A stretch of 64,000 nt of DNA from an uncultured delta proteobacterium. GTDB taxonomy: Bacteria > Desulfobacterota > Binatia > Binatales > Binataceae. The notes beneath the pieces are model-generated. The model had not been told where the DNA came from and made no database searches. It saw only the letters and a list, made by a program, of their open reading frames with translations. How positions within the stretch are numbered: position 1 is the stretch's first letter; every line of letters starts with the position of its first letter. Shown piece after piece: positions 3,526-61,631 of the stretch. The stretch spans positions 160,754 through 224,753 of the forward strand of contig CAVWLM010000002.1 of the NCBI GenBank assembly GCA_963755905.1, read 5' to 3'. Position numbers and translations under genes: made by a program.

Positions 3526-4623
3526 ATGAGTCAGATTAGTTCAACCGCAACCGGCGAGCAGCGCGAGCCGCTGGGCCTGGGGCTCTTCATGCCCAATTGC
3601 AGCAACGCATACTCGATCAGCACCTACAAACCGGTGCCCGACGATTGGACCTACGAGTCCAACGCGCAGATCGCGCGAGTTGCCGAGGCCGCCGGCTTCG
3701 ACTTTCTTTTTCCGGTCGCCAAGTGGAAGGGCTACGGCGGTAAGACGGATTTTCTCGGGATCTCGCTGGAGACCATGACCTGGGCGGGCGCGCTGCTCGC
3801 CACAACCCAGCGCATCCAGGTCTTCTCCACCGTGCATGTGCCGATTTTTCATCCATTGGTTGCCGCGAAGATGGGCGCCACGCTCGACCATATCGGCAAG
3901 GGGCGATGGGGTCTCAACGTGGTCAGTGGATGGAGCGAGCGCGAGTTCGGCATGATGGGGATCGAGGTCCTGCCGCATGGCGAACGCTACGAGCGCACCG
4001 CCGCCTATATCGAAATCATCAGGGGTTTGTGGACCAGCGAGCCGGGCACCTTCAACCACGAATCGAAGTGGTACCGGATTCGCGACGGATGGGTGATGCC
4101 GCAGCCGACCCGCAAGCCGCATCCGCCAATCGCCAATGCCGGCGGCTCGGAGGACGCGCGCCAGTTGGTGGCGCGGCTCTGCGACATGGCTTTTGTCTCC
4201 CCGCCGTCGATTGAAGCGAGCGCCGAGGTGACCGCCGATTTTCAAACACGCGCCGCGCGCTATGGACGCAGCGTCAAGTGCTGCTGTTTTCCGTTCGTGG
4301 TTTGGGGCGAGACGGAACGCGAGGCCCTGGATGAACGCCGCCGCATCCTGGAACAGATGGATCGCGAAGCGGCCCAAAACTGGGCCGGCGGTCTTTCCGG
4401 GCAAAGCGGCTCGTTCGACCAGTTCACGCTCGAGATGTTCGCGCTGGGCGGGGGTGGCTTGCCGATCTTCGGTACCCGCGAGCAGGTTGCCGAAAAGCTG
4501 GACCGGCTCTACCGCTTGGGGATGGACGGGCTGCTGATGGTGTTTCTCTCGTACTACGAGGATACGCTGCGCTTCCAGCGCGAGATCATGCCGCTGCTGC
4601 GCCAGCTCGGAACGATTCGCTGA
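3526..4623 (+). CDS. LLM-class flavin-dependent monooxygenase (RutA/SsuD-like)
   Basis: FDFLFPVAKWKGYGGKTDF...GRWGLNVVSGWSEREF resembles pyrimidine monooxygenase RutA. Confidence 0.8.
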   Translation: MSQISSTATGEQREPLGLGLFMPNCSNAYSISTYKPVPDDWTYESNAQIARVAEAAGFDFLFPVAKWKGYGGKTDFLGISLETMTWAGALLATTQRIQVFSTVHVPIFHPLVAAKMGATLDHIGKGRWGLNVVSGWSEREFGMMGIEVLPHGERYERTAAYIEIIRGLWTSEPGTFNHESKWYRIRDGWVMPQPTRKPHPPIANAGGSEDARQLVARLCDMAFVSPPSIEASAEVTADFQTRAARYGRSVKCCCFPFVVWGETEREALDERRRILEQMDREAAQNWAGGLSGQSGSFDQFTLEMFALGGGGLPIFGTREQVAEKLDRLYRLGMDGLLMVFLSYYEDTLRFQREIMPLLRQLGTIR

Positions 4624-22625: not shown

Positions 22626-23171
22626 ATGAGCTACTGCGAAATCGCGCCGGGGCATCCGCTGCACGGTCCCTATCACGACCGCGAGTACGGCTTTCCCACG
22701 CGCGCCGAGGACAAGCTTTTCGAGCGGCTGGTGCTCGAGATCAATCAAGCCGGACTCTCGTGGCTGACCGTTTTACGCAAGCGCGAGGCGTTCTCCAGGG
22801 CCTTCGACGGTTTCGACGTCGATCGCGTGGCCGCGTACGGCGAACGCGAACGCGCGCGCCTCCTGGCCGACGCCGCAATCGTACGCAACCGGCTAAAGGT
22901 CGAAGCCGCGATCGAAAATGCACGCCGAATCGCCGCCCTGCGCGAGAGCCACGGGGGATTTGCGCGATGGCTTAGAACAAATCATCCGCTCGATAAAACG
23001 GAATGGGTGAAGCTGTTCAAGCGTACCTTCGTCTTCACGGGCGGCGAGATAACAGGCGAGTTCCTGATCAGTATCGGCTATCTGCCCGGGGCACACGTCG
23101 AAAGCTGTCCGGTGTACGCGAGGATCGGACGGCTGAATCCGCCTTGGATGCGCGAGAAGGCGAGACAATAA
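22626..23171 (+). CDS. tag: DNA-3-methyladenine glycosylase I
   Basis: CEIAPGHPLHGPYHDREYGFP...LVLEINQAGLSW is the Tag signature. Confidence 0.85.
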   Translation: MSYCEIAPGHPLHGPYHDREYGFPTRAEDKLFERLVLEINQAGLSWLTVLRKREAFSRAFDGFDVDRVAAYGERERARLLADAAIVRNRLKVEAAIENARRIAALRESHGGFARWLRTNHPLDKTEWVKLFKRTFVFTGGEITGEFLISIGYLPGAHVESCPVYARIGRLNPPWMREKARQ

Positions 23172-23189
23172 GGTCTGGACGGGGGGTTC

Positions 23190-23239
23190 TTGACAGCTAG
23201 GCGAGCATAATAGATATTGAGAATCATTCTCAATATCTA
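23190..23239 (+). promoter_or_regulatory. TTGACA -35 box followed by a perfect 29-bp palindrome (candidate operator)
   Basis: TTGACA at 23190-23195. TAGATATTGAGAATCATTCTCAATATCTA at 23211-23239 is a perfect inverted repeat in an AT-rich patch. Confidence 0.4.
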
Positions 23240-23647
23240 GGACGACGCAATTGGAAGAGAAAAAAAACTGTGTACTACGCCGGCTCGCCGGACGGGCGTC
23301 GTTCAGTGCCGATGCCTGCGTCTGCGGAGCGATTCACCTGACGATAGGATTCATCACCTTGCGGGTCGATCCATGCGCATTCCGTGAATTCGCCGCCGTA
23401 GTGATGGAGAGCCTGCGCCACCTCGAAGCCCCGGACTGTCCGACAATTCACTGAGGTTGTTTCCCACCAAGCACGTGGCTTGCGCCGCGAACCGCGGCTC
23501 ATCAAGCTTGCATAGGGCCGAATATCGCGCCGCAACTCGCATGCTTCGCGATGGCCCCGAGTTTTGCGATGTTGTTCCAGACGCCGAGGGCACTATCGAG
23601 AGGGACGGCCGGCAGGCGTGGTTCCGCAAGGGCGACAGGAGCAGGAT

Positions 23648-24523
23648 ATGAAAATCGGAGTCGCAACATTTCTCACCGAACATTCAGGTAATCCCGGCAC
23701 GATCGCGGCCGAGGCCGAGGGCGCCGGCTTCGAATCGTTCTGGGTCGCGGAGCATCTGGTCATCCCGGTCACTTACACGACCTGGTATCAGCGTTCGCCC
23801 GACGGCAAAGTGCCGGAGTCCTACGCCCATCTGGCCGATCCGTTTGTCGCACTGGCGGTGGCCGCGCAGGCGACCTCGCGCATCCGCCTCGGCACCAGCG
23901 TCTGTCTTTTGCCCGAGCGCAATCCGATAGAAACCGCCAAGGCCGCCGCGACGCTCGACCTGTACTCGGGCGGCCGATTGATGCTGGGGGTCGGCGCGGG
24001 CTGGTTTCCCGAGGAAGCCGCGATAATGGGTGTCGATTTCAAGCGCCGTTGGCGTCATCTGCGCGAATCTGTCGAGGCGATACGCGAGCTGTGGACCAAG
24101 CCAGAAGCGAGCTATGAGGGCGAAATCATCAAGTTTCCACCGGTCAGGCTTTTTCCCAAGCCGGTGCAAAAACCCTGTCCACCGATCTTTCTCGGCGCGC
24201 ACGACCCCGCGCGGGCATTGAAACGAGTCGCGCGATGGGCGGACGGATGGATGCCGGGCGGACTCAGCCCGGAACAGGCCGAAAAGTGCATACCGCAGGT
24301 CAAGCGGATGGCGCGCGAAAATGGGCGAGACTCCGAGCGTATGGAGTTTTCGGTGATGCTTGGTATCGGCTCGCAGCAGGCTCCGACGACCGAAGCGCTC
24401 GAGCGCTATGCCGCTGCCGGTATCACGCGGGTGATTATCCTGGCGGCCGAGACCGCCGCGCGCGACGGGGTCGAAGTGGTCAGGGGACTGGCGCCGCTCG
24501 TCGAGCGCGCGGCGCGGATCTGA
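23648..24523 (+). CDS. LLM-class F420-dependent oxidoreductase
   Basis: MKIGVATFLTE...FESFWVAEHL...LGTSVCLLPERNP. Start taken at MKIG (23648). Confidence 0.8.
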   Translation: MKIGVATFLTEHSGNPGTIAAEAEGAGFESFWVAEHLVIPVTYTTWYQRSPDGKVPESYAHLADPFVALAVAAQATSRIRLGTSVCLLPERNPIETAKAAATLDLYSGGRLMLGVGAGWFPEEAAIMGVDFKRRWRHLRESVEAIRELWTKPEASYEGEIIKFPPVRLFPKPVQKPCPPIFLGAHDPARALKRVARWADGWMPGGLSPEQAEKCIPQVKRMARENGRDSERMEFSVMLGIGSQQAPTTEALERYAAAGITRVIILAAETAARDGVEVVRGLAPLVERAARI

Positions 24524-24651
24524 CGCGTGGCCTTTTCGGCGGCCACGCAGGAATTGCCGCACGGGCGGCCTTGTCGCATCATGTAGCCAGTGACATAGTG
24601 CGATGATAAGCATCAGCGCAGTTCAATAAACGCAATTCCGGCATAGCACGC

Positions 24652-24960
24652 TTGATTATCGAAACGATCAAAATCGAATTGAACTCGATAGTAGTAGCGA
24701 CCGCGAACCAGATTTCCTGCGACCTCGAGGGCGACGCCGCGATCCTCAATCTGAAAACCGGCGTATACTATGGACTGGACGATATTGGCGCGTCGATTTG
24801 GCGGATGCTAAACGAGCCGCGTCGCGTCGATGATCTGGTCGACGCATTGCTCGGCGAGTATGAGGTGGACCGCGAGGAATGCCAGCGCGACGTGATCGCG
24901 TTGCTGGGCGAACTTGCCGTGCGCGGACTGGTCGAGGTAAGTGACACGCTCGAAAGTTGA
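24652..24960 (+). CDS. PqqD-family RiPP recognition element (lasso-peptide B1-like)
   Basis: ILNLKTGVYYGLDDIGASIWRMLNEPRRVDDLVDALLGEYEVDREECQRDVIALLGELAVRGLVE is near-consensus PqqD/B1. TTG start. Confidence 0.8.
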   Translation: MIIETIKIELNSIVVATANQISCDLEGDAAILNLKTGVYYGLDDIGASIWRMLNEPRRVDDLVDALLGEYEVDREECQRDVIALLGELAVRGLVEVSDTLES

Positions 24961-25469
24961 CTGCCCTCGGCGTTGTCGCGGGGCTGGACCGTCCCGCCTG
25001 GAAATCCCGTCGAGCGCGAGCGTCCAGGACCACGATGGTACGTCGAGCCGCTAAATTTCTTGGCCTGCCGTTCTCCGACCAGCGGCTGCTTATGCGTGCC
25101 GCGCTGGCGGTCGTCGGTGCAAAGGTCGCTATTAGAACCTTGCGCTTGCCCGCCGCGCGCGCGGCAGTTTTGCGCCTGGAACGCCTGGGATGGTTTGTCA
25201 TCCCGGCGCCCGCGGACCGTATTGTCTGGGCCGTGGCAGCAGCTGGAGGCACCATACCCGGCATGAAGAATTGCCTGGTGCAGGCGGTGGCGGCCGAGGC
25301 GATGCTCATCCGCGCGGGCCATCCGTGCGAATTCCGGATCGGCGCTGCGAAAAGCGGGCCGCACGGCCTGATCGCGCATGCATGGCTGGAGAATGAGGGC
25401 CGGGTTCTTATCGGCGATTTCGAGGTCGATCGCTACGCTCCGCTGATGGCGCGTCGTCCTCAGAATTAA
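24957..25469 (+). CDS. Transglutaminase-like cysteine protease (lasso-peptide B2-like leader peptidase)
   Basis: CLVQAVAAEAMLIRAGHPCEFRIGAAKSGPHGLIAHAWLENEGRVLIGD has the Cys...His...Asp arrangement of lasso B2. Overlaps the B1 stop. Confidence 0.8.
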   Translation: MTALGVVAGLDRPAWKSRRARASRTTMVRRAAKFLGLPFSDQRLLMRAALAVVGAKVAIRTLRLPAARAAVLRLERLGWFVIPAPADRIVWAVAAAGGTIPGMKNCLVQAVAAEAMLIRAGHPCEFRIGAAKSGPHGLIAHAWLENEGRVLIGDFEVDRYAPLMARRPQN

Positions 25470-25637
25470 GCCTGTATTTTCAATGATTTCGTCCTGTTCC
25501 TTGGGCTTATCGTAGAGTGTAGACTCGCCTCCGGATCAAGGGTTGCGGATGTGACGATTCGCGAACTGACCCGCAGGCGGCGCACAATCAAATCCTCCGT
25601 ACAGCCGCGTTCCTCTCGACCAGCGCGATCGCGCTAT

Positions 25638-26630
25638 ATGGCCTATGGGCTCGCGATTGATTCCGATCTGTCGCTGCCCCAGTTGGAAGCGACGCGCGGT
25701 CAATCCTGGCCGTTTCTGCTGGGGAAACTACGTATACGAGTGCGGCGGCAGGAGGCGCGCGAGCCGCAGGAGTGGCTGCTTCAGACCAGCCTCCCCGACG
25801 GGCAGCCGTGGATGTGGGCGGCACGCCAAGAGCGCGGCTTTCTGATCCGCTACTTCGGTCTGGCTGATTTCATAGTGAATTCGAGGGGTACGGAGATCGT
25901 TCTCACGCGCGCCGAACCGGTAAGCTCGAGCGATACCGTGGGCCATCTGCTGCTGGATCATGCGCTTCCGATGGTTTTGGGCCTGCGCGGAATCCCGACG
26001 CTCCATGCCTCCTCGGTGGTGACCCCGCGCGGCGTGTGCGCTTTCGTGGGGACCACCGGAGCCGGCAAATCTACGCTCGCCGCAAGCTTTTCCGCCGCTG
26101 GATATCCAGCCTTGGGCGACGATTGCCTAGCGATAGCGGAGGACGGCGGATTTTTCGCCATCCCGGCATACCCGGGCGTACGCTTATGGATGGATTCCGC
26201 ACGATCATTGTCGACGGAATGGTCCAATGCGCCCACCGTTGCGCATTACACGAACAAGCTGCGTATTTTTGATGCGTCCGCCCTCAAGAACTTCCCCACG
26301 CGGCTCGAACCGCTGGCGGTCATCTATTGCCTCGCGCGCGATACGGCAGGCGTCGATCCAGGCGCGGCGTCGCCCTCGATCGAGCCGATGCAGCCCAAGG
26401 ACGCCTTTCTGGAACTGCTATCTGCCAGCTTCATGCTGGACATCACCGACAGCTCGGTGCTGACCCGCAACCTTCGCTTTATCGAGCGCTTGTTCAAGGT
26501 GGTGGCGGTACGGCGGCTCAAAATTCCCGAGGGATTTTCTTCATTGCCCAAAGTACGCGAGACGGTTTTCAACGACCTTGGTGTGCCGGCTCCCCGCGCC
26601 ACCTTCGGCGCGCCCCTCGGAGCTAGATAG
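25638..26630 (+). CDS. HPr-kinase (HprK C-terminal domain)-like serine kinase
   Basis: HASSVVTPRGVCAFVGTTGAGKSTLAASF is a P-loop in HprK-like context. Start taken at MAYGL; the ORF opens at 25551. Confidence 0.7.
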   Translation: MAYGLAIDSDLSLPQLEATRGQSWPFLLGKLRIRVRRQEAREPQEWLLQTSLPDGQPWMWAARQERGFLIRYFGLADFIVNSRGTEIVLTRAEPVSSSDTVGHLLLDHALPMVLGLRGIPTLHASSVVTPRGVCAFVGTTGAGKSTLAASFSAAGYPALGDDCLAIAEDGGFFAIPAYPGVRLWMDSARSLSTEWSNAPTVAHYTNKLRIFDASALKNFPTRLEPLAVIYCLARDTAGVDPGAASPSIEPMQPKDAFLELLSASFMLDITDSSVLTRNLRFIERLFKVVAVRRLKIPEGFSSLPKVRETVFNDLGVPAPRATFGAPLGAR

Positions 26631-26665
26631 GAGGCGGCCAATCGCGTACGCCCCTGGCGTCGTCG

Positions 26666-27931
26666 ATGCGCGTCATCAACCCGATCGCATCTCTTCTGAA
26701 ATCCGGTTCGGCGGTGAGCCGTGAGGCTGAACTGCTCATCTGTTGCTCGACCTCGGTCGCGACGCCCGAGCGCACGGCGCGTTTGCGCGCGATCGTTCAG
26801 AGCGGCGTCGATTGGCCTCTCGCCACGCGGATGGCGTTGGTACAGGCGGTACTGCCACTCGTCTATCGCTACCTGACTGCGGAGCTTGCCGACGCCTTGC
26901 CGGCCGATGCGGCCACGAACCTGCGCCGGGCTTATCAGGGTAACTCTTTGCGCAACCTCCATCTCGCGCGCGAGCTAATCCGATTGACCGCACTTTTGGA
27001 GCGGGGCGGCGTCGAGACGCTAGCGCTCAAGGGTCCGGCGCTGGCGATGACCGCCTACGGCAGTGTCGCGATGCGGCAGTTCACCGACCTTGACCTGCTG
27101 GTGCGCAAGAGCGCGGTGCCACGCGCGGTCGAACTACTACATAACGAGGGCTACGCGCTCCGCGAGGGGTTCGGCCTGGCTGACCTCGGGCGGCGCGACA
27201 CCTACGAAATTGCGCTCACGCGGGCGGACCGGCTGACCGAAATCGATCTTCACTGGAGACTTATCCTGCCGTATTTTCCGTTTTCGCTCGACAGCGAAGA
27301 TCTGTGGCGGCGTGCCGTGCGGGTGGAGATCGAAGGCGGCGCCGTGCGTACGCTCGCGCCCGCCGATCATCTGCTCTATCTATGCGTGCACGGCGCCAAG
27401 CATGGATGGCAAACGCTCGGCGGGATTTGCGATCTGGCCGGGCTGATTCGCGCTTCGTCGCAGGCATCATCGCAAGCATTCTCAATCGACTGGGATGAGC
27501 TCTCGGCACGCGCCGAGCGAGCCAGTGCGCCGCGGGCGCTGTGGCTCGGCACGCTTCTCGCGCATGAGCTGCTCGACGCCGCGGTGCCGGCCGGCGTGCT
27601 CGCCGCGGCTCGTCGCGAGCCCGCGGTGATCCGCGCCGCGCGCTGTTTCGTCGGTTACGTGAGCGACCCGGGCGACGATGGGCCGGGATTCTACCAGCGA
27701 TGGTCGGTGCCGCTGCGCGTAATCGCGGAACCCGGAGCGCGGCTCCACTACCTGGCGGCTCGCGCGCTGCTGCCGAGCGCCGACGATCGCGAATTTTTGC
27801 GCCTGCCGCCGGTGCTCCATCCCCTGTACTATCTACTGCGTCCGGTCAGGGTGGCTCTAAAGGAGGGTCCCGCCGTCCTACGCAGGCTTATGCGTTCGGC
27901 CCTACGGCCGGCAGATCATTCATCGCGGTGA
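26666..27931 (+). CDS. Nucleotidyltransferase-family protein (uncharacterised NTase, often lasso-cluster associated)
   Basis: Family call by overall similarity (LALKGPALA...FTDLDLLV...LHWRL) plus context. Confidence 0.55.
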   Translation: MRVINPIASLLKSGSAVSREAELLICCSTSVATPERTARLRAIVQSGVDWPLATRMALVQAVLPLVYRYLTAELADALPADAATNLRRAYQGNSLRNLHLARELIRLTALLERGGVETLALKGPALAMTAYGSVAMRQFTDLDLLVRKSAVPRAVELLHNEGYALREGFGLADLGRRDTYEIALTRADRLTEIDLHWRLILPYFPFSLDSEDLWRRAVRVEIEGGAVRTLAPADHLLYLCVHGAKHGWQTLGGICDLAGLIRASSQASSQAFSIDWDELSARAERASAPRALWLGTLLAHELLDAAVPAGVLAAARREPAVIRAARCFVGYVSDPGDDGPGFYQRWSVPLRVIAEPGARLHYLAARALLPSADDREFLRLPPVLHPLYYLLRPVRVALKEGPAVLRRLMRSALRPADHSSR

Positions 27932-29835
27932 GCAAAACCCTCGAAGCTTATATCCGCGCGTTGTTCGAGGTCGGACGAGCTCGAATCGCCGGTGCGATCG
28001 CATTGATGTTTCTTTTTTCGGTCAGCGAGGGTGTCGGGATCGCGCTGCTCCTGCCGATCCTCCAGGCCTCCGGCTTCGACCTCGGCGCGCAGGGCACGGT
28101 TGGGCGCTACGCAAGAGCTTTCGATTCCGCGCTTGACTCTGTCGGCTTCCATCCGAGCCTGCTGTTGCTGCTGATGGTGTTCGCGGGATTGGTCGGGGCG
28201 CGGGCGCTTCTGGGGCGTTGGCAGATAGTCGCGATGGTCTCGGTGCAGCAGAATTTCGGCGCCCGTCTGCGTCAGGGACTGTACCACGCGATCGCCAACG
28301 CCAACTGGCTCGCGCTTTCGCGGATGCGCTCGTCGGACCTGGCTCACGCGCTGACGGCGGAGATAGACCGGGTCGAAGCCGCGACCTTCGAAGTGCTTAG
28401 CCTCGCCTCCTCGGCGCTGCTGTTCCTGCTCTATCTTGCGATCGCGCTTGCGGTCTCGGCGGGGATGACAGCGCTCGCGCTAGGTTGTGGAATCGTCCTT
28501 GTCGCATTGCTGCGCGGACGCGCGGCGCTTCTGCGCGGCGCAGGCGCCGACTTGTCGGAGCGGACCAAGGGACTGTACCGCGCCACGGTCGAGCATCTGC
28601 AGAGTCTCAAGGCAGCCAAAATGTACGGCCTGCAGGAGCGCAATGCCGAATCCTACGCGACGCTCAGCCGCGAGGTCTCCCGAGCCGGCGTCGATATCGA
28701 GCGCCAGCAGGCCGCCACCAACTCGCTCTTCGAGATTGGTTCGGTCGTGATCCTGGCTGCCGTGCTCTACGTCTCGATTCGCGTGCTGGGGGTCGCTCCG
28801 TTCGCGGTGCTGTTGCTGCTGGCGATGTTCGCGCGCGTGATGCCGCGCGTCATTCAATGCCATCAACTGTACCAGGAGTGCATGCATGCGCTGCCCGCGT
28901 TCGAGAACGTAAACGATCTGGCCGGGCGTTGCGCAGCGATGGCCGAGCCGGCGATCGTTCTCGCTCACGCGCTCGAATTTCGAAATTCGCTGAAGCTCGA
29001 GGGTGTCTCGTTCTCGTATCGGCGCGCGAATGACGCCGCATCCGCCAACCAGTCTGACCAATCGAGCCAATCTCCCCAATGGTCTCCCGCTCAATCCAAA
29101 AATCCGCCCGCGGTGCGCGATCTCGACCTGACGGTGCGTCTGGGTGAGGTCGTGGCGCTGGTCGGTCCTTCGGGTGCGGGCAAGAGCACGATTGCCGATT
29201 TGATGACGGGTTTGTTGCCGCCTGATTCGGGAAACGTCACAGTCGACGGCGTTGTGCTGGACGAAACCCGTGCGCGCGCTTGGCGCGAGCAGGTAGGTTA
29301 TGTCTCGCAAGACACCTACCTCTTTCACGACACTGTGCGGGCCAATCTGCTGTGGGCAAGGCCGCAGGCGAGCGAGGCCGAATTGCGCGAGGCGCTCGGC
29401 CTCGCCGCGGCGCAACAATTCGTCGACGCTCTGGCGGAGGGACTCGACACGGTAATCGGCGAGCGGGGCTCGTCGATTTCGCACGGTGAGCGCCAGCGTA
29501 TCGCGCTCGCGCGGGCGCTGTTGCGCCGGCCTCGTTTGCTCATCCTCGACGAGGCGACCAACAGCCTCGACGCGCACAACGAGCAGCGAATCCTTGACGC
29601 GATCGAACGGCTACGTGGCGATCTGACCATCGTGATGATCGCGCATCGGATTGCGGCCGTGCGGCGGGCCGACCGGATCAACGTAGTGGACGGCGGTTCG
29701 ATCGTGGAATCGGGGAGTTGGAATGAACTATGCGCTCGAGAGCATGGGCGCTTTCGAGCGTTATGCGAGAGCCAGGGAATCGCACCCGTGCCGCTGGCCC
29801 CGGCGGCGCCTCCGTCAATAGGCCGTCTGGCATAA
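27928..29835 (+). CDS. ABC transporter, fused permease/ATPase exporter (lasso McjD-like)
   Basis: Six-TM domain followed by an NBD (GPSGAGKST Walker A, ILDEATNSLD Walker B, IAHR H-loop). GTG start overlapping the upstream stop. Confidence 0.8.
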   Translation: MSKTLEAYIRALFEVGRARIAGAIALMFLFSVSEGVGIALLLPILQASGFDLGAQGTVGRYARAFDSALDSVGFHPSLLLLLMVFAGLVGARALLGRWQIVAMVSVQQNFGARLRQGLYHAIANANWLALSRMRSSDLAHALTAEIDRVEAATFEVLSLASSALLFLLYLAIALAVSAGMTALALGCGIVLVALLRGRAALLRGAGADLSERTKGLYRATVEHLQSLKAAKMYGLQERNAESYATLSREVSRAGVDIERQQAATNSLFEIGSVVILAAVLYVSIRVLGVAPFAVLLLLAMFARVMPRVIQCHQLYQECMHALPAFENVNDLAGRCAAMAEPAIVLAHALEFRNSLKLEGVSFSYRRANDAASANQSDQSSQSPQWSPAQSKNPPAVRDLDLTVRLGEVVALVGPSGAGKSTIADLMTGLLPPDSGNVTVDGVVLDETRARAWREQVGYVSQDTYLFHDTVRANLLWARPQASEAELREALGLAAAQQFVDALAEGLDTVIGERGSSISHGERQRIALARALLRRPRLLILDEATNSLDAHNEQRILDAIERLRGDLTIVMIAHRIAAVRRADRINVVDGGSIVESGSWNELCAREHGRFRALCESQGIAPVPLAPAAPPSIGRLA

Positions 29836-29948
29836 GCTGGAAATCCTGATTCCCGAAGCGCGTCGGCATCCAGGCGCGCAATCATTGGAAGAGGCGAGCG
29901 GAGTCTTTTCGGCCAATCAGTCCTTTATCCGGTCGGAGCGGCTGTCGC

Positions 29949-31370
29949 TTAGCCCAGGTGCGGTACCGATCCGGGTGCCGCCTCGAGCACGGCCGCACGC
30001 CACTCGCGCTTGATCGGCAGGATCGGTGGCATCGGCGCAAAATCCGGCTCCGGCGTAGGCGCGGCGATCGAATCGATGTTCAAGGTGCGCGAAGCTTTCC
30101 GCATGAAGAGATTATAGATCAGCCATTGCGCGCGATGCCGCCTGCCGCGCAACGGAAATCGGCTGGCCATCGAAGACGCCGAATAAAAATTTGCGTAAGC
30201 GCGCTCCAGGCCGATACGAAGCTCGTCCGCCGACATCTGCGCCGGCTGAAATACGACGTGGCCTTGATCGTACATCGTCCAGTCGAAGGAAACGATTCGG
30301 TTCGCCTTCTTCATCTCGTACCAGGTGAGCGTGCCCGGATAGGGCGTGAGCGCCGAATAGGCACAGGCATCGAATTTGGCGCCGACATTGAAGGCGACCG
30401 TTTCGTCGAAGACCGATCGATCGTCGCCGTCGAAGCCATACATGAACAACCCGAATACCATGATCCCGTATGAATGCACTTTCTCGACCAACGCGGCGAA
30501 GGTCTCGGGCCGATTGACGTGCTTGTGTACGCTTTCGAGCGTCGCGCGTGCGATCGACTCGAAGCCGATGCTCAACATCGTGCAACCGCTTTCGGCGGCG
30601 AGCTCGAGCATGCGATCGTCCTGCGCCAGTTTAGAGGTGACGCCGGCTTGCCATTGGATGCCGCGTCCTTTCAGCGCACGCATCACTTCCTTGGGACGCT
30701 CCGAGGTGCCGAAAAAGTCAGCGTCGTTGATCGAGACCGTGCGCGAGCCGCAGTTCTCCATCTCGTAAATGACCTCATCGACCGGCCGATAGCGGAATTT
30801 CAGGCCGTTCATGAGCGGTTCGGCGCAGAAAGTGCAGCCCTGGTGGCAGCCGCGCGAAGTCTGAACAAAGGTGCGGTTCACGTAACGGTTCTTTTTCAGC
30901 AAATCGTAACGCGGCATCGGCATCCCGGCCATCGGATGCAACGTATCCGACTTATACGTGCCTCGCATCGAGTGCTGCTCGAGGTCATCGAGCAGCTTTC
31001 CGATAACGAACTCGACCTCGCCGATAACGACGGCATCGCAATGCTTCAGCGCTTCCTGCGGCATGAAGCTTGGATGCACACCGCCCATCGCGACGGGCAC
31101 GCCTTTGGCGCGGAATCGGTCCGCGATTTCATAGCCGCGATTGACGTAACTGGTCATCGCGGAAATCCCGACGAGGTCCGCTTTCAAATCGAAATCGATC
31201 GTTTCGATGTTTTCGTCCGTAAGCACCACTTCGTACTGGTCCCGCGGAATGGACGCGGCGACCGCGAGTAAGCCTGCGAGCGGAGAATAGAGTGCGCGGT
31301 TCATGTATACCGGCCGAGTGGTAACAGAATCGGTCTTCGGATTAATAAGATGAATGATGCGAGTGCGCAC
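29949..31370 (-). CDS. B12-binding domain radical SAM protein
   Basis: N-terminal B12-binding region (DLVGISAMTSY) and SRGCHQGCTFCAE, a CxxxCxxC motif. GTG start with a GGAGA RBS. Confidence 0.8.
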   Translation of the reverse strand: MRTRIIHLINPKTDSVTTRPVYMNRALYSPLAGLLAVAASIPRDQYEVVLTDENIETIDFDLKADLVGISAMTSYVNRGYEIADRFRAKGVPVAMGGVHPSFMPQEALKHCDAVVIGEVEFVIGKLLDDLEQHSMRGTYKSDTLHPMAGMPMPRYDLLKKNRYVNRTFVQTSRGCHQGCTFCAEPLMNGLKFRYRPVDEVIYEMENCGSRTVSINDADFFGTSERPKEVMRALKGRGIQWQAGVTSKLAQDDRMLELAAESGCTMLSIGFESIARATLESVHKHVNRPETFAALVEKVHSYGIMVFGLFMYGFDGDDRSVFDETVAFNVGAKFDACAYSALTPYPGTLTWYEMKKANRIVSFDWTMYDQGHVVFQPAQMSADELRIGLERAYANFYSASSMASRFPLRGRRHRAQWLIYNLFMRKASRTLNIDSIAAPTPEPDFAPMPPILPIKREWRAAVLEAAPGSVPHLG

Positions 31371-31933
31371 TAGGTTCTCCTGTACTTACTATCCGAAGTT
31401 ATAGCCACTAGCGGGTATCGATAATTGCAGAGAAAAAGACCCATCGCTTCGGTTGCCCAGACTCTCACTCCCAAAGAATCCATCGAGGACGTATGAGAAT
31501 TTATCAGATTGCCAGTCGGTCCGATACCGAGCGCTCGAAGTGTGAAGCCTGGAAGCTTTAGGGGACGACGATCAGGCGAGCGATAAATATGCGACGTTCG
31601 GATAATTTGACAGTTATCCGTGAAGTGTCCATGAACAGTCCGGATTCCGGCACTACCTTAACGCGCTTCAAAGCGTATGGAAGGAAGAATTTTATACCCG
31701 GAATTAATTACACGGGGAGCATCAATTGCGGGTCGCCCGTAGTTGAGAAAAGGGCGCAAGTTCCATCTCCCACAGAACAAATACGCGCTGGCACAGTGTG
31801 TGCGTTCTCACCGAAACGAACGTCGAGTCACTACGAATCATCGGGTGACAAGCCAGGCGATTTGTCTGCATCCGCTTTAATCGAATCGGATGCGGAAAGT
31901 TTGTTCAGAATCCGCGGTTAGCCGCGGGAGGAG

Positions 31934-32158
31934 ATGAGACCGATGAAATATCCAAACAGGTTCGTTCGAATTCTTTTAAGCGCAACCGTATGTTTCGCGA
32001 TGGCAGGATGCTTTTCCTACAGCAAAGAGGAAAGCACCGCGGTTCCGACCGTCGAGACGCCTGCGACGACCTCGTCGACTACGACTACAACCACGGTTCC
32101 GGACACCAGTACGACGATAGAGAAGCGTACTACCACGACATTTCCCAGCAATCCGTAG
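31934..32158 (+). CDS. Small Thr-rich lipoprotein
   Basis: Lipobox FAMAGC followed by TTSSTTTTTTVPDTSTT. GGGAGGAG RBS. Confidence 0.5.
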   Translation: MRPMKYPNRFVRILLSATVCFAMAGCFSYSKEESTAVPTVETPATTSSTTTTTTVPDTSTTIEKRTTTTFPSNP

Positions 32159-34247: not shown

Positions 34248-35432
34248 TTGACGTCGAGTTCGATGAGCGGCTACGAATCGGATGTTTTGAAAGTCAGCAA
34301 AGACATTCCGGAGCAATCGACCGGCTGCCATCGGAATTCGGAGCGATATTTCAAGCCCCTGATGTATCTGCTTGCCGCGTTGGCGGCATACGTGAGTGGG
34401 GCCAACATGCATTTGGGCTACGCCTATGCAGCGGATGCACCCGCGCAGGCTGGCCTGACCGTGCCCCAGGTCAATTCGCTACTGACCCCACCCGGTCGGG
34501 ACGGCGAGAAGGTCCCGATCCAGGTCGCGTTGGACGTTATCAATTTGTCCGACATAGATGAGGTCACTCAGCGTTTCAGGGTCGTAGCCTACCTGCTGGC
34601 TAAATGGACGGATCCCCGCCTCGCGTTCACTCCAAAGGCCGCATGGGAGAAATTTCGAGTTTATCACCCTGACGAAGTATGGACGCCGCATTTCGATTTC
34701 GCCAACGGCGTCGTGCCGCACTCCGCGTCTGACGTCACCCTGCGGGTCTTTCCCGATGGGACGGTCAAATATTTCGAACGTTCCAGCGCCGAGCTTTCCA
34801 ATAGTTTTCATCTTCGCCGTTTTCCATTCGATCGGCAGCGCCTGGAAATACTTATTCATCCGCCGCTCAGCGAAGCCGCGCTGGTACATTTCCTCGGCAC
34901 AGCCAATGGACCGTCGATTAGTGTGGAGAGACGAGTCTATTCGTCTCTGGCGGAATGGGCGATCGTAGGAATCCTGGCAAATGCCGAACTAATTCCCGTA
35001 TTCGGCACGGACACCACAAGCCAGATGCGATTCACAATCCAGGTCAAACGAAAGTTCAACTTCTATATATGGAAGGTATTCTTCCCCTTGCTACTCATGG
35101 TGCTCCTTTCGTGGACAGTCTTCTGGATCGACAGCTCGGAGCTAAGCAGTCAGGTTACTATCTCGGTCACGACGGTTCTCACCGTTATCGCCTTCGCATT
35201 TGCGATCTCGACCAACTTGCCGAAGGTTCCATACCTGACCTTTATCGACGTGTTTTTCTTGAGCTGCTACGTGTTTGTCTTTATCACAGCCATCGAACTC
35301 ACCCTGGTACACCTCGCCGGTCGGAGCAAACGCGACAAGATGGGAGAAGCTATTCGGCGCTTCAGCAGGATCGGCTTGCCCGTGCTATTCGTCCTCACCA
35401 ACCTGCTGACGATCGCGGTCTACTTCGGTTAG
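34248..35432 (+). CDS. Pentameric ligand-gated ion channel (prokaryotic Cys-loop receptor family)
   Basis: Extracellular LBD motifs (VINLSDIDEVTQRFRVVAYLLAKWTDPRL) followed by four TM helices. A probable signal peptide starts at M 34362. Confidence 0.75.
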   Translation: MTSSSMSGYESDVLKVSKDIPEQSTGCHRNSERYFKPLMYLLAALAAYVSGANMHLGYAYAADAPAQAGLTVPQVNSLLTPPGRDGEKVPIQVALDVINLSDIDEVTQRFRVVAYLLAKWTDPRLAFTPKAAWEKFRVYHPDEVWTPHFDFANGVVPHSASDVTLRVFPDGTVKYFERSSAELSNSFHLRRFPFDRQRLEILIHPPLSEAALVHFLGTANGPSISVERRVYSSLAEWAIVGILANAELIPVFGTDTTSQMRFTIQVKRKFNFYIWKVFFPLLLMVLLSWTVFWIDSSELSSQVTISVTTVLTVIAFAFAISTNLPKVPYLTFIDVFFLSCYVFVFITAIELTLVHLAGRSKRDKMGEAIRRFSRIGLPVLFVLTNLLTIAVYFG

Positions 35433-45527: not shown

Positions 45528-48401
45528 TCAGGCGCCGAGTGGGAAGTTGCCGGCCGTGTGTATCGGACGCTGCCGCCCACTGTCGGTGGCTGTGCTTGGG
45601 TAAGGATCGATGGAACCCTGCGTCACGCGCAGGCGCTCACGGAGTTTGTCGGCGAGCCCGCGCACGTAAGGCTCGCGGAACATCGGCTGGCCGTGAAATC
45701 CCTCGACGTCGACGATTTCGAGGCCGCCGGCTGCGAGCTCACCCCATCCGAGCAATGGATCGGTCTCGTAGATCTCGCTAGACGGTTGCGCGGGCACTCG
45801 GAACAATGTGATCGGGCGCGGATAGGGGAGCGGATGATAGTGTCGCTTGGCCGCGAAAGCCACGTTAAGAAACGACAGGTACAGGCTTTCCTGCGAAACT
45901 GGACGCCCGGCTAGTCTGCGCCAGCAAGTATCCATTCGCCGCGCCCAAATCCTGAACATCTCGCGACGCATCTCGGACCATCGACGATCCGGCGGCTGTG
46001 GAAAAGGGTTGCCGAGGCGGCGAAACAGACGAAATCGCGCGGGCGCTTCGCGGCGGAGCCTCGGATATCCGGGTGCGCGCGTATCGAATAGAGCCAGCAG
46101 GCCAACTTCCTGTCCAGCTCGCACCAATTGTTGCGCGATCTCGAACGCCACGATACCTCCGTACGAGGATCCGCCGAGAAAATACGGTCCGCGAGGCTGT
46201 AGCGCTCGCATCTCTCGCACGAAGTACGCGGCGAGCGAATCCACCGTGCGTAGCGGCGGATGCTGGCCGTCCTGTCCCGGCGGCTGCAAGCCATAAAAAG
46301 GCTGATCGAGCCCCAGATGACGCGGCAGTTCGGAGAGCGAGAGCACGTCGGTGCCGGCGCCCGCCGCGCAAAAGAACCCGGGCCGGTCGCCGTGCGGTTG
46401 CAGTGCCACAATCGCTGGCCACGCCGGCGACCAACTCGCGTCGCGCAGGACCTCGGCCTGTCGCGCCACGTTCGGAGCCTCGAGCAATAGCGAAATCGGC
46501 AGCCGGCGTCCGCAGACGCTTTCGATCCTGCCGACCAACTCCAGAGCGAGAATCGAGTCTCCCCCGAGCTCGAAGAAGTCGTCGCGGACGCCGACCGGCT
46601 GAAGCTTGAGCACGTCTTCCCATATCGCCGCCAGGCATAACTCGAGGCGGTCGCGCGGCGGATGCGCGCCGGAACGCGCCGGCTCCGGATTGGGCAGCGC
46701 GTCGCGGTCGACCTTTCCATTGGATGTGAGCGGTAGAGAATCGACGCACACGAACACCGAAGGGACCATCGAGGCTGGGAGCGTGCGCCCAAGCTGGCCG
46801 CGCAGCGCCGCGGGCGAGGCCGAGCCCACCACGTAGGCCACCAGACGAGTTTCCCCCCAACGGTCGGGCCGGCCTACTACCGCGGCCTCGCGAATTTCGG
46901 GATTCGTCAGCAGCGCCGCTTCGACCTCGGCGGTCTCGACTGATTGACCGCGGACCTTCACCATCGATTCGCGCCGGCCCAGATGGACTAGACATCCGTC
47001 GGGCAGGATCATTCCGCGGTCGCCTGTGCGGAACATCCGCCTCCCGTCGGGACAGGTCGAGAGCGCGGCGGCAGTGAGTTCGGGATTGTGCCAATACCCG
47101 CAGAAAAGATAGTCGCTCCTGATCGCGAGGTCGCCCGCGCGGCCATCTGTCAGCTCGCGGCCTTCTTCGTCCAGCACGACGATTTCCGTATCCGCCAATT
47201 CATAGCCGACCGGAATTACCGATCCGTCGAACGTGGAAGCCTCGTCGATGAAGAACATTCGGATGCTGTTCATTTCAGTGGCGCCGAGGCTCGCGCACAA
47301 AATGCTCGTCCTGGGCAGATGTCGGCGGAAAAGCTCGACATCTCTGAGCGTGGTCGCCTCGCCGCCCAGCTTGACCAGGCGCAGAGACGGCATCGACGCA
47401 TCTTCCGGCAGCGAAGCCACGAGGCGCCTGAATACCGTCGGCACCGAATGGTAGAGCGTAATTTCTTCGCTTGCGATCCAGGAGCCCAGGTCGGCGAATC
47501 CCCGCGCACGCAGATCGAAAGGATGCAACGAGGCGCCGTTCAGCAGCGCGCCGAAGATATCCGACACCGAGGCCCCGACCTCGTACACAGGCAGCAGGGC
47601 ATGACGGTCGGTGGCGTCGAGGTGCACGCCGTTGGTGTACTTCATAATGTTGTGCAGGACGTTGCGATGACTCTGCACGACACCCTTGGGTTTCCCCGTG
47701 GATCCCGAGGTGTAGAGGATGTACGCGATCGCGCCGGGCGAAATTGGCAGGCCGAGGTTTTCTGTGGAGAGCCGGTTTCCGATTCCGTCGATTGAAATGA
47801 TCGTGATAGGGCCGGCCTCTTCCGGAGGAATTCCGGTCGATTCGTGCGCAATCTCCCGCGCTGTCGCGGCGTTGAGATCGTTGGTGAGGATCGTTTCGGC
47901 GCCGCAATCCTTCAGGATAGCGGCGAGCCGTGCGGCCGGATGGGCCGAGCTCATCGGGACGTAGCATCGCCCGGCCTTGAGCACACCGAGCATCGCGGCT
48001 ATCTCCGGCGCTCCGTGTTCGAACAGGAGCGCGACAGGGGTGCCGTTTGACGATCGCGCATCTGATAGCAAGGCGCGGCCGATACAATTCGCCCGGGCGT
48101 TCAGCTCGCCGTAGCTCCATTCATGTGCGCTGTCGCGAATTGCCAGTGCGCCCGCCCGCCGCGCCACCTGGTCCTCGAAGCGGGCGGCGATCGATTGCTC
48201 GACCGCGCTCCGGTCGAAAGGCGTGAACGCATTGCACGGCCCTGGGCATCGACGCGCATGTGCGCGCGAAGGGTCGGCTGTGGCTCGCAAGGAATCGGCA
48301 GTGGCTTCGGATGAATCGAGCATGTTTGGCGAAGCAGGGCCGCGAAGATTGGCCTTCGCTTGCAGTAAAATAGCCGTTTCCCTTAGCAGTGCAAGCGACA
48401 A
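45528..48401 (-). CDS. Single-module non-ribosomal peptide synthetase (A-PCP-TE)
   Basis: Adenylation core motifs (YTSGSTGKPKGV), PCP motif DDFFELGGDSILAL, C-terminal thioesterase GGSSYGG. Confidence 0.8.
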   Translation of the reverse strand: MSLALLRETAILLQAKANLRGPASPNMLDSSEATADSLRATADPSRAHARRCPGPCNAFTPFDRSAVEQSIAARFEDQVARRAGALAIRDSAHEWSYGELNARANCIGRALLSDARSSNGTPVALLFEHGAPEIAAMLGVLKAGRCYVPMSSAHPAARLAAILKDCGAETILTNDLNAATAREIAHESTGIPPEEAGPITIISIDGIGNRLSTENLGLPISPGAIAYILYTSGSTGKPKGVVQSHRNVLHNIMKYTNGVHLDATDRHALLPVYEVGASVSDIFGALLNGASLHPFDLRARGFADLGSWIASEEITLYHSVPTVFRRLVASLPEDASMPSLRLVKLGGEATTLRDVELFRRHLPRTSILCASLGATEMNSIRMFFIDEASTFDGSVIPVGYELADTEIVVLDEEGRELTDGRAGDLAIRSDYLFCGYWHNPELTAAALSTCPDGRRMFRTGDRGMILPDGCLVHLGRRESMVKVRGQSVETAEVEAALLTNPEIREAAVVGRPDRWGETRLVAYVVGSASPAALRGQLGRTLPASMVPSVFVCVDSLPLTSNGKVDRDALPNPEPARSGAHPPRDRLELCLAAIWEDVLKLQPVGVRDDFFELGGDSILALELVGRIESVCGRRLPISLLLEAPNVARQAEVLRDASWSPAWPAIVALQPHGDRPGFFCAAGAGTDVLSLSELPRHLGLDQPFYGLQPPGQDGQHPPLRTVDSLAAYFVREMRALQPRGPYFLGGSSYGGIVAFEIAQQLVRAGQEVGLLALFDTRAPGYPRLRREAPARFRLFRRLGNPFPQPPDRRWSEMRREMFRIWARRMDTCWRRLAGRPVSQESLYLSFLNVAFAAKRHYHPLPYPRPITLFRVPAQPSSEIYETDPLLGWGELAAGGLEIVDVEGFHGQPMFREPYVRGLADKLRERLRVTQGSIDPYPSTATDSGRQRPIHTAGNFPLGA

Positions 48402-60945: not shown

Positions 60946-61007
60946 GTAAACTCCTTTCGAGATTCGGCGCTTAGCTGGCGAGAACTCCGCTCTTGCTGGC
61001 CGGCTCG

Positions 61008-61631
61008 CTACTCTTCGAACGCCTTGTTGAAGCCGTAGCCGACCATCTGCGCGTGAAAGCCGGCGACGTCGTGCGAGAGAATCAGGAGGTCGCTTTTCTT
61101 GCCGGAGCGATCTTTCACATGGTCGCGCAGCAGCGCTTCGGGCCGGAATCCCATGCTCTGAAAAGTGGAGATCGCTCCTTTTTGATCGACCGTCATCTGG
61201 GCGATCATCTTTTCGATCCCCTGTCCCAGAGCGATCGCAAAGGCCTCCTGGGTAAGCAAGCGGCCCAATCCCTTGCCGCGCATCTTCGGCGAAACCAGGA
61301 CGCGAAGCTCCGCCACGTGGGGTGACCACGAGAGTTCTCCGCGGTCGACGGTGGCGTAGCCGACGACCGTGCCGTCGTGCTCGGCGAGGATGCTGCTGAT
61401 GCGTCCGCGTTCGATTCCATTGAGCCACACGTCGATCGCTTCCGGCCTGGTGATATCGCGGCGCAGGAATAGAAGATCGTGCTCGGGAAGCGAGCGGGCG
61501 AACGACAGCGCGTTCTCCCGATCGGCGTCGGTCATTTTGCGCAGGTTGACGGCGAAGCCGTTCAGGGAAACCTCGCGAGGGTACCTGCGCGGAGTTTCGC
61601 CCTTGTCATGTGTCGCAGTGTTTTGCGTCAT
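61008..61631 (-). CDS. GNAT-family N-acetyltransferase
   Basis: RGKGLGRLLTQEA is acetyl-CoA-binding motif A. The ATG overlaps the phaC stop (ATGA). Confidence 0.7.
   Translation of the reverse strand: MTQNTATHDKGETPRRYPREVSLNGFAVNLRKMTDADRENALSFARSLPEHDLLFLRRDITRPEAIDVWLNGIERGRISSILAEHDGTVVGYATVDRGELSWSPHVAELRVLVSPKMRGKGLGRLLTQEAFAIALGQGIEKMIAQMTVDQKGAISTFQSMGFRPEALLRDHVKDRSGKKSDLLILSHDVAGFHAQMVGYGFNKAFEE

Follow-up and report, generated by a model that had tools for sequence, protein, structure and literature searches.

Five lasso-peptide genes without a cyclase or precursor: probably the retained accessory half of a system divided between two loci, from a relative of the Binataceae

The question raised by this locus is why a set of five co-directional lasso-peptide genes, B1-B2-K-N-D, is found without the cyclase gene (C) and the precursor gene (A) in the stretch of 64 kb analysed here, called the window. 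The original prediction had placed these genes at 24652-29835, where we found them as well, and had left two readings, either a RiPP pathway working without a lasso cyclase or a decaying lasso cluster. Our best explanation, to which we give a probability of roughly 60%, is that the locus represents the accessory half, still retained, of a lasso-peptide system that is divided between two loci in a relative of the Binataceae, probably kept because a second lasso locus has the cyclase and the precursor and lacks the protease, the nucleotidyltransferase, and the exporter.

The domain searches upheld the PqqD, lasso B2, and NTP_transf_5 assignments, and the 128-nt gap 5' of B1 and the 168-nt gap 5' of the kinase ATG both match their earlier description. 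The genes of the locus and its neighbours are as follows:

23648 to 24523, forward strand: LLM/F420-dependent oxidoreductase (PF00296, E 8.8e-60; TIGR03619, 259.9 bits)
24652 to 24960, forward strand: B1, PqqD-type RRE, leader-peptide binding (PF05402 PqqD, E 4.6e-21)
25035 to 25469, forward strand: B2, transglutaminase-like Cys leader peptidase (PF13471, E 3.7e-17)
25551 or 25638 to 26630, forward strand: K, lasso-type peptide kinase with HPrK/PEPCK-like P-loop fold
26666 to 27931, forward strand: N, PsmN-like NTP_transf_5 nucleotidyltransferase (PF14907, E 1.5e-62)
27928 to 29835, forward strand: D, half-size ABC exporter, transmembrane domain then nucleotide-binding domain (PF00664 and PF00005)
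29949 to 31370, reverse strand: B12-binding radical SAM gene, a neighbour only (PF04055 and PF02310)

B1 scored 75.8 bits against the lasso PqqD model NF033536 (cutoff 80), and B2 scored 68 bits against the lasso B2 model NF033537, exceeding its cutoff of 33. Loss of the catalytic Cys or His of B2 had been put forward as the mark of a decayed locus, and no such sign of decay was seen, with the Cys (GMKNCLVQA), His (AHAWLE), and Asp (IGDFE) all conserved. The start of K is uncertain, being either the GTG at 25551 or the ATG at 25638, where the sister strain has GTG, and its one match by sequence is a weak one to TIGR04352 (E 3e-4). The label of HPr-kinase-like protein stands, based on the residues H123, K144, D161, and D162, which are invariant in 19 homologues and are the same four residue types as the His-Lys-Asp-Asp motif of PadeK-type kinases (PMC9266682), on the predicted fold (AlphaFold model with pLDDT 85.9, matching ATP-PEPCK at E 2e-7 and HprK/P at E 2e-4), and on the position of the K gene directly 3' of the precursor gene in 45 loci. 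In N, conservation across 64 homologues is at least 95% at G123, R137, D141, and D143, and we equate its DxD pair (D141/D143) with D134/D136 of PsmN (PMC6993621). The best PDB relatives of D are ABCB-type exporters; the call of a “McjD-like ABC exporter” holds for the exporter, and its McjD-like part found no specific support, D being a generic ABCB-type protein.

The absence of C and A from the locus and its flanks was borne out, with neither gene nor remnant found in 64 kb by these searches: the ten longest plausible ORFs of the window, all of at least 450 aa, contain no Asn_synthase domain; tblastn with the orthologous cyclase over the whole 64-kb window gave nothing better than E 0.1; and a precursor HMM derived from 45 loci of related type, with positive controls at ~E 1e-19, had its best match in the six-frame translation of the window at E > 7.

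The suggested check of synteny in public genomes revealed complete clusters at the orthologous chromosomal site in related Binataceae (L003, L005-L008, L009, L010, and L013), with the gene order LLM-B1-MT-B1'-U589-B2-C-A-K-N-D, where D was found in L009, L010, and L013, and also in every short form. Compared with the full type (L010, L003, L006, L009, and L013), the window locus has the same neighbourhood, orthologous B1, B2, K, N, and D proteins with 71-88% identity, and the same conserved spacer and hairpin 5' of K, but it lacks MT, B1', U589, C, and A, and deletion has replaced the end of its B2. The window B1 is 84-88% identical to full-cluster B1, and identities to L003 are 85, 77, 74, and 73% for B1, B2 (over residues 1-139), K, and N, respectively. 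Two scars were located:

24961 to 25034, forward strand: deletion scar 1, B1 stop codon joined to the terminal ~60 nt of what was once the U589-B2 spacer
25452 to 25637, forward strand: deletion scar 2 and the kept former A-K intergenic region, from junction alignments

Deletion 1 took out MT, B1' (the second PqqD gene), and U589; its scar was mapped by aligning it to the corresponding spacers between U589 and B2 in L010, L003, and L006, and the same junction recurs in L004, L091, and L014. Deletion 2 extends between the 3' end of B2 and the final codons of A, so that C and A are gone, the last ~6 codons of B2 are replaced, and the B2 tail is fused to TAAGCC, the few terminal nucleotides left from the precursor gene. 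The distance from HAWLE to YxAYGL is 258-264 nt in the window, L004, L091, L119, and L014, compared with ~2,560-2,594 nt in the full clusters, and the hairpin at 25541-25568 is conserved with compensatory changes in 13 loci. Both junctions are common to the window, L004/L119, L091, and L014, which include at least three diverged lineages, and these alignments show that the window locus is, as read from its sequence, a complete lasso cluster reduced by two deletions to B1-B2-K-N-D.

The window, L004, and L091, three lineages with common deletion junctions, each have the five ORFs intact. In the pairs that contain the window, dS is ~0.55-0.65 and every bootstrap upper bound of dN/dS is at most 0.35, and the dN/dS range in short forms equals that of full-cluster pairs. 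Between the short-form lineages, dN/dS is 0.10-0.12 for B1, 0.17-0.20 for B2, 0.14-0.26 for K, and 0.14-0.18 for D, with N at 0.17-0.20 for window-L004 and window-L091 and at 0.43 for L004-L091; where strains differ more strongly, in a patch covering B2, K, and N, dN/dS is still just 0.11-0.27. These ratios show, at the level of codon comparison, purifying selection on the five genes since the deletion.

The partner locus exists. In a sister assembly, where the corresponding locus (L124) is 99.46% identical to window positions 15638-36630, one contig of 1,757,358 bp carries L124 together with P0173 and a second locus, L123, at a distance of ~0.87 Mb, with the gene order B1'-C-methyltransferase-A-K2 and with B2, N, and D all absent from the 10 kb to each side. 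P0251, a cyclase ORF that shares a 90% cluster with P0173, lies on a 1,654,264-bp contig. One recorded contig alone has the window's exact kinase and is large enough to contain the window, and it is of this same length, from which we infer the contig of P0251 to be the source contig of the window. The original prediction had stated that this would be an ordinary split lasso cluster if the contig carried C and a precursor at another place, and these two findings are of exactly that kind. The precursor of L123 matches the HMM at E 6.7e-18, and it reads MTKSMAKRAKQETRKPGEQAVKKSYVAPRLVEYGNVAKLTS/SNGSAIPFDTRTTRMTSLVCL, where Thr occupies position −2 and the ring is predicted to join Ser1 and Asp9; the leader motif KK.Y..P.L.EYG.VAKLT is common to both precursor families. 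A contig from JGI sample 3300079084 (L125) has an intact 649-aa cyclase in the same gene order as L123, and the same sample has a contig with the short form of the window and its exact kinase; exact matches to the precursor and methyltransferase sequences are on record at NCBI as well. Both long assemblies have a frameshift in the partner cyclase, following residue ~130 in L123 and residue ~282 in P0251, and we read these frameshifts as probable assembly errors, with real pseudogenes as the alternative, because their positions differ and the independently assembled L125 is intact. Among the ~93 partner-type B2 family members listed, none lies on the 1,757,358-bp or the 1,654,264-bp contig; the material inspected comprises the 64-kb window, loci of ~21 kb, and lengths taken from the protein index, and another B2 or another complete lasso cluster may lie elsewhere in the genome. 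B2 is absent within 10 kb in 9 of 80 related loci, and a precedent for sharing is found in L010, where a B1-C-MT-A cassette that has no B2, K, N, or D of its own directly follows the D gene of a full cluster.

The complementary gene content of both loci, together with the selection on the short form, suggests that they would work together in trans. In such a system, the B1 and B2 proteins of the window would bind and then cut the leader of the partner precursor, the remote cyclase would then close the macrolactam, K and/or K2 would phosphorylate the peptide, N would modify it, and D would export it; which kinase acts and the final chemistry of the product are points that we infer. A locus devoid of B2 need not rely on a remote B2, because pseudomycoidin can form without B1 and B2 (PMC6993621). 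The partner has its own B1' and K2, and only B2, N, and D are strictly complementary, which leaves the selection on the window B1 and K incompletely explained.

Another explanation for the kept genes, which we regard as unlikely, is that the bacterium is a non-producer that keeps its protection, with D, and perhaps K and N, pumping out or neutralising the lasso peptides of full-cluster Binataceae. The clade has lost C and A in at least three or four independent events (window type, L109/L117, L012, and L111/L114), K was kept after every loss, N was kept wherever the region 3' of K is readable, except in L111, and D was kept in the window-type form and in L012; moreover, the dN/dS of D (0.14) is among the lowest of the five genes, and soil and peat metagenomes contain full and short forms alike, all of which would suit such a role. 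However, B1 and B2 have no immunity role and yet are constrained as in full clusters (dN/dS 0.10-0.20), the lasso kinases studied to date act on linear precursors and not on threaded peptides (PMC9266682), and a partner that lacks exactly B2, N, and D provides a simpler explanation.

The erosion of the cluster to a functionless remnant, with genes intact only through the recency of the deletions, is already disfavoured and in our opinion quite improbable. Erosion does occur among the relatives, as seen in the truncated B2 and the MT and U589 fragments of L012, the joining of B1 to K in L111 and L114, and the frameshifted B2 and N of L014; the frameshifts of the partner cyclase in two assemblies also speak for this reading. 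Nevertheless, the lineages with common junctions have diverged to the dS given above with intact ORFs and a dN/dS well below 1, which holds even in the divergent B2-K-N patch, and the catalytic residues are conserved (Cys/His/Asp of B2, H-K-D-D of K, and DxD of N), so the decaying cluster of the original prediction is not what we find. Its other reading, a cyclase-independent route in which a linear peptide would undergo leader removal, phosphorylation, glycosylation or nucleotidylation, and export without any macrolactam, has in its favour five genes under selection without a cyclase in cis and K-type kinases acting on linear precursors (PMC9266682), but it is very improbable, with no candidate precursor in 64 kb, a locus demonstrably derived from a complete, canonical lasso cluster, a precursor with its cyclase on the same chromosome, and a cyclase adjoining K in almost all of the 80 kinase-family genome loci wherever the sequence permits the check.

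Returning to the two-locus system, all of its enzymes are known, and what is unusual is their unclustered arrangement and the repeated independent loss of C and A. The pseudomycoidin cluster of Bacillus pseudomycoides DSM 12442 (psmC, A, K, B1, B2, N, D; PMC6993621) shares with the window the split B1/B2, the HPrK-like kinase, the NTP_transf_5 protein (PsmN), and the ABC exporter, as well as the D-D pair of the kinase metal site and the DxD of N. It differs in being self-contained, whereas the window locus lacks C and A, and in belonging to another host phylum; in addition, the window kinase is recognisable by motif and fold alone, and the partner precursor ends in ...VCL, without the C-terminal Ser that PsmK phosphorylates. 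The paeninodin cluster of Paenibacillus dendritiformis C454, described with the ThcoK and SyanK kinases (Zhu et al. 2016, as reviewed in PMC9266682), also has a His-Lys-Asp-Asp kinase next to the precursor gene, and this kinase acts on the linear precursor ahead of the B2 and C steps (PMC9266682); in contrast to the window, it is a complete cluster without an N gene, and its defining C-terminal Ser is missing in the Binataceae and Nitrospira precursors found. Maturation steps encoded far from the precursor gene are known from the citrulassin PAD (PMC8498205) and from unclustered lanthipeptide proteases (PMC8960859), although in those cases one tailoring enzyme or a general protease is all that is encoded remotely, whereas the remote part here would comprise the class-defining B2 together with N and D, as the visible remnant of a second cluster. 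A PqqD-family protein with an HprK-related kinase is likewise found in the “HPr-rel-A system” of TIGRFAMs (TIGR04352, kinase A; TIGR04353, PqqD-related chaperone), membership of which was rejected at 19.8 bits for the kinase (cutoff 200) and 19.2 for the PqqD protein (cutoff 35).

With regard to the neighbours, the B12-radical SAM gene, which had been proposed as a possible tailoring enzyme, does not belong to the system: no diverged relative has it, L004, L091, and L119 lack it 3' of D, a search with it found no copy in the 88 related loci, and it is present only in the window's own species (L090 and L124). The LLM gene lies directly 5' of B1 in all close relatives, full and short forms included, and also in the distant loci L015, L032, and L081; with a dN/dS of 0.10, it is a conserved neighbour of B1 that is possibly associated with the cluster.

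The locus at window 24652-29835 proved by profile matches to consist of five tightly packed, co-directional genes, as the original prediction had it:

24652-24960, + strand: B1, PqqD-type RRE (PF05402, E 4.6e-21, 75.4 bits; NF033536 lasso PqqD, 75.8 bits, just below the cutoff of 80)
25035-25469, + strand: B2, Cys leader protease (PF13471; NF033537, 68.2 bits, above the cutoff of 33)
between B2 and N, + strand: K, kinase of 330-359 aa (only a weak HprK-related match, TIGR04352, E 3e-4)
26666-27931, + strand: N, nucleotidyltransferase (PF14907 NTP_transf_5, E 1.5e-62, 211.9 bits)
27928-29835, + strand: D, half-size ABC exporter

By PF05402, B1 provides the locus with an RRE of the PqqD family, and an alignment with the B2 proteins of full clusters showed that the Cys-His-Asp triad of the B2 protease is kept in conserved columns. 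As to whether the exporter D is kin to McjD in particular or to ABCB exporters at large, it matched only generic ABC exporter families (best HepA and MsbA, none reaching its cutoff), and its best 60 PDB matches were ABCB-type transporters; its genomic association with lasso clusters is clear from related loci. Sequence searches of the PDB with B2 and K gave nothing informative, an Rfam scan of window 23000-32000 gave nothing meaningful (best E 0.96), and in a promoter/terminator scan shuffled sequence gave at least as many sites. Upstream of the five genes is an F420/LLM oxidoreductase, and downstream a convergent B12-radical SAM gene; the latter had been put forward as a possible tailoring enzyme, a role that we rule out given that the gene is confined to the window's own species: three related loci (L004, L091, and L119) lack it downstream of D, and none of the 88 related loci that were searched with it has it.

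The HPr-kinase-like label given to K was upheld by its motif and its predicted fold. Residues H123, K144, D161, and D162, invariant among 19 homologues, are of the same four types as those in the His-Lys-Asp-Asp motif known from the lasso kinases PadeK and ThcoK (PMC9266682). The AlphaFold model of K (pLDDT 85.9, pTM 0.86) has its matches among ATP-dependent PEP carboxykinases (E 2e-7) and HprK/P (E 2e-4), which puts K in the PEPCK/HprK P-loop fold. Most homologues of K come from Binataceae, Nitrospira, Entotheonella, and related MAGs. The assignment of N to the nucleotidyltransferases likewise stands, on its strong PF14907 match and on the Asp pair D141 and D143, which is kept, is at least 95% conserved among homologues, and may be equated with the catalytic pair D134/D136 of PsmN (PMC6993621). 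The gene set matches that of the paeninodin and pseudomycoidin kinase/nucleotidyltransferase lasso clusters (PMC9266682, PMC6993621, PMC8498205), and the enzymes and chemistry are all of known kinds. Membership of the TIGRFAMs HPr-rel-A system was rejected on score: TIGR04352 (cutoff 200) gave 19.8 bits and TIGR04353 (PqqD-rel-X; cutoff 35) gave 19.2 bits.

The locus has B1 and B2 and, for want of a cyclase (C) and a precursor (A), does not qualify as a self-contained lasso cluster. The absence of C, as predicted, was borne out in that no PF00733 Asn_synthase domain was present in the ten longest plausible window ORFs (at least 450 aa), tblastn with the orthologous C of the related L003 cluster against the 64-kb window gave no match better than E 0.1, and our own C HMM found no match in the window. 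The methyltransferase (MT), U589, and precursor of that cluster likewise gave nothing by tblastn in the 64 kb. The best match of an HMM built from 45 precursors of related loci (controls score about 1e-19) to the six-frame translation of the window had an E value above 7. The 128-nt and 168-nt gaps were also confirmed as claimed, with no plausible small ORF inside, and none of the gap ORFs of at least 20 aa fits a precursor with Thr at leader position -2, a core starting with G, A, S, or C, and D/E at position 7-9. A precursor hidden in the gaps is ruled out, the 168-nt gap being the conserved former A-K spacer, and so is a precursor fused to the N-terminus of K, given that the apparent extension stems from start-codon uncertainty; a conserved motif, R/F-H-Y-x-AYGL, precedes the K ATG. 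At window 25541-25568, in this former precursor-kinase spacer, we observed a conserved hairpin (consensus GCTCGCGG-loop-CCGCGAGC) that shows compensatory changes at several pairs among 13 loci, matched no Rfam family, is kept despite the loss of the precursor gene, and holds within its loop a candidate GTG start of K (25551).

Close relatives share with the window the neighbouring adenine glycosylase, cupredoxin, haem-binding protein, and LLM genes, and carry at the corresponding site a complete cluster with the order LLM-B1-MT-B1'-U589-B2-C-A-K-N-(D). The window proteins are 85% (B1), 77% (B2), 74% (K), and 73% (N) identical to those of L003, and in nearly all of the 80 genome loci K has C as its immediate upstream neighbour, wherever the sequence suffices to check. 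Among the GTDB species representatives, which do not include the source genome, the best match was 78%. U589, a 589-aa protein encoded between B1' and B2 in the full clusters (L003 5060-6829), has no Pfam match.

The short form B1-B2-K-N-D of the window retains the junctions of two deletions. At the first, the 74-nt B1-B2 spacer is made up of the B1 stop codon and the terminal ~60 nt left from the spacer between U589 and B2; at the second, the B2 tail (...YAPLMARRPQN) reads into the final nucleotides of the lost precursor gene, and the ~190-nt A-K spacer with its hairpin is retained. In alignments both junctions are common to the window, L004/L119, L091, and L014, and therefore each deletion occurred once, in their common ancestor. 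Close relatives have lost C and A at least three further times with different breakpoints each time, so that this loss is recurrent in the clade: L109 (313-774) and L117 (7071-7532) run from codon ~7 of C into the leader region of A, L012 (9416-10015) runs from mid-B2 into the core region of A, and L111 (6869-8401) and L114 (2-1429) have B1 joined straight to K. K was retained in every one of these losses, the window type included.

Given the shared junctions, the divergence among the short forms (dS ~0.55-0.65 in pairs including the window) accrued after C and A had been lost. The window, L004, and L091 each keep the five ORFs intact, with pairwise dN/dS values of 0.10-0.12 for B1, 0.17-0.20 for B2, 0.14-0.26 for K, 0.17-0.20 for N (0.43 for L004-L091), and 0.14-0.18 for D; every bootstrap upper bound for the window-including pairs is at most 0.35, and full-cluster pairs lie in the same range. 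These substitution patterns point to purifying selection on the short form, and the decaying cluster offered as one option by the original prediction was not borne out.

A search with the cyclase of a second cassette found in another relative (L010) led to the partner locus. Its match P0173 lies on ENA ERZ25039484 contig_3828 (1,757,358 bp), which also holds L124, a short form 99.46% identical to window 15638-36630, and the two loci are ~0.87 Mb apart. In the partner locus, L123, B1' and a once-frameshifted C are accompanied by a PrmA/PRMT-like methyltransferase, the 62-aa precursor MTKSMAKRAKQETRKPGEQAVKKSYVAPRLVEYGNVAKLTS|SNGSAIPFDTRTTRMTSLVCL (HMM E 6.7e-18; predicted ring Ser1-Asp9), and a second kinase, K2, whose gene is intact; the 10 kb to each side contain no B2, N, or D. 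A second assembly probably agrees: P0251 (NCBI and ENA), from the 90% cluster of P0173, lies on a 1,654,264-bp contig, and the window's exact kinase, P0001, is recorded on a contig of that length, presumably the same one; among the contigs recorded with P0001, only that one could span a 64-kb window. In a third, JGI sample 3300079084, another member of the same cluster, P0248, is an intact 649-aa cyclase in a locus (L125) with the gene order of L123, and a contig of the same sample carries the short form together with the exact kinase P0001. The exact partner precursor and methyltransferase sequences are also recorded from NCBI.

The partner cyclase is frameshifted at ~9781 (codon ~130) in L123 and after residue ~282 in P0251 (also placed after ~260 of 306); P0251 reads through the L123 site and breaks elsewhere, so that both frameshifts in these two megabase-scale assemblies, as judged against the intact L125, are probably assembly indels, a caution against pseudogene calls from such MAGs. 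In other genomes this type of cyclase comes with a particular B2 type; a profile of the latter gave ~93 family members, and none of those listed is on the 1,757,358-bp or the 1,654,264-bp contig.

The 45 precursors carry the leader motif KKPY..P.L.EYG..AKLT and a core that begins with G, A, or S and has D/E at about 8-9, and the motif is nearly alike in the lost (full-type) precursor and the partner precursor. The C-terminus reads ...HG(Q/E/M/S)G in full-type precursors and ...CL in many related ones, in the latter usually after Ser/Thr, as in L032, L054, L060, L063-L065, L076, L077, L079, L080, L082, L083, L085, and L123, all from partner-type and Nitrospira clusters; the C-terminal Cys of these precursors is possibly modified. 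Paeninodin and pseudomycoidin precursors have a defining C-terminal Ser, whereas we found no conserved C-terminal Ser phosphate acceptor in the partner precursor (ending ...TSLVCL) or in the full-type ones. In partner-type loci of 16 other genomes, a 288-aa minus-strand ORF without a Pfam match (X288; L123 14205-15071) follows K.

On the replicon of the sister short form, a cyclase gene and a precursor thus occur at a distance, in a locus with no B2, N, or D inside 10 kb (L123 and L124, with P0251 and L125 in agreement), which is what the original prediction had named as evidence against itself; its gene set stands, while neither the cyclase-free pathway nor the decaying cluster that it proposed does. 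The window and partner loci are complementary in gene content, and the best explanation, in our view, is a split lasso system in which the window locus would act in trans, supplying B2, N, and D plus its own B1 and kinase, while the partner would supply C, A, MT, B1', and K2, and in which the window B1 and B2 would recognise the leader motif of the partner precursor. Within a genome view that covers the 64-kb window and individual related loci, the indirect pointers to co-operation are the complementary gene content, the purifying selection, the common leader motif, and the absence of a listed partner-type B2 from both contigs. Against it count the partner's own B1' and K2 and the fact that pseudomycoidin can be made without B1 and B2 (PMC6993621).

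Among the rivals, a non-producer that keeps the locus for export or immunity would agree with the recurrent loss of C and A and the low dN/dS of D, and has against it the constraint on B1 and B2 and a partner locus that lacks just B2, N, and D. A functionless remnant would agree with the differently eroded relatives, and it runs against five intact ORFs with dN/dS values like those of full clusters. A cyclase-independent pathway draws on the lack of C in the window, and the partner cyclase speaks against it.

The split lasso system would have consequences for the finding and the making of such peptides. Lasso genome-mining tools generally seek B, C, and precursor in close proximity, so that both halves would be discarded, this one for having no C or A and the other for having no B2, and heterologous expression of the Binataceae peptide (core SNGSAIPFDTRTTRMTSLVCL) would require genes of both loci. 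If the loci co-operate, the class-defining lasso leader peptidase would be encoded hundreds of kilobases away from the peptide it cuts, and an eroded cluster would be seen to persist through accessory genes shared with another cluster. Remote RiPP genes have precedents in the citrulassin PAD (PMC8498205) and in unclustered lanthipeptide proteases (PMC8960859); our literature searches found no report of a remote lasso B2 inside the remnant of a second cluster and no papers on lasso peptides in Binatota.

In L010 (14484-19275) a second cassette, B1-C-MT-A, stands directly after D of the full cluster, followed by a 288-aa minus-strand ORF and without B2, K, N, or D of its own; from its gene order this is a natural case of one accessory set apparently serving two cyclase-precursor pairs, shared in cis. 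It is conceivable, though we consider it rather unlikely, that B1-B2-K-N-D is a trans-acting maturation/export platform for remote B1'-C-MT-A cassettes, perhaps Binataceae-wide; were this true, Binataceae lasso biosynthesis would routinely be spread across several loci, and the repeated C and A deletions would mean a product switch and not a loss of production. In a bolder version still, B1-B2-K-N-D might have acquired a cyclase-free role, in linear phospho-modified peptides or in neutralising foreign lasso peptides.

As to strain variation, B2, K, and the 5' portion of N account for 82 of the 105 mismatches between the window and the 99.46% identical sister assembly. Comparing window 25035-27100 with L124 9398-11470, the divergence is ~4.5% in B2, ~4.4% in K, and ~1.4% in that portion of N, whereas the flanking genes differ by 0.1-0.35%; the patch has dN/dS 0.11-0.27 and a 6-nt in-frame indel in K, and looks like an allele imported by homologous recombination. 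L014 has frameshifts in B2 and N.

Elsewhere in the window we also observed the following genes:

45528-48401, - strand: stand-alone NRPS-like protein with adenylation, carrier, and thioesterase domains
34248-35432, + strand: homologue of prokaryotic pentameric ligand-gated ion channels
1783-2841, 3526-4623, 58866-59915, and 59932-61428: four further luciferase-like monooxygenase paralogues
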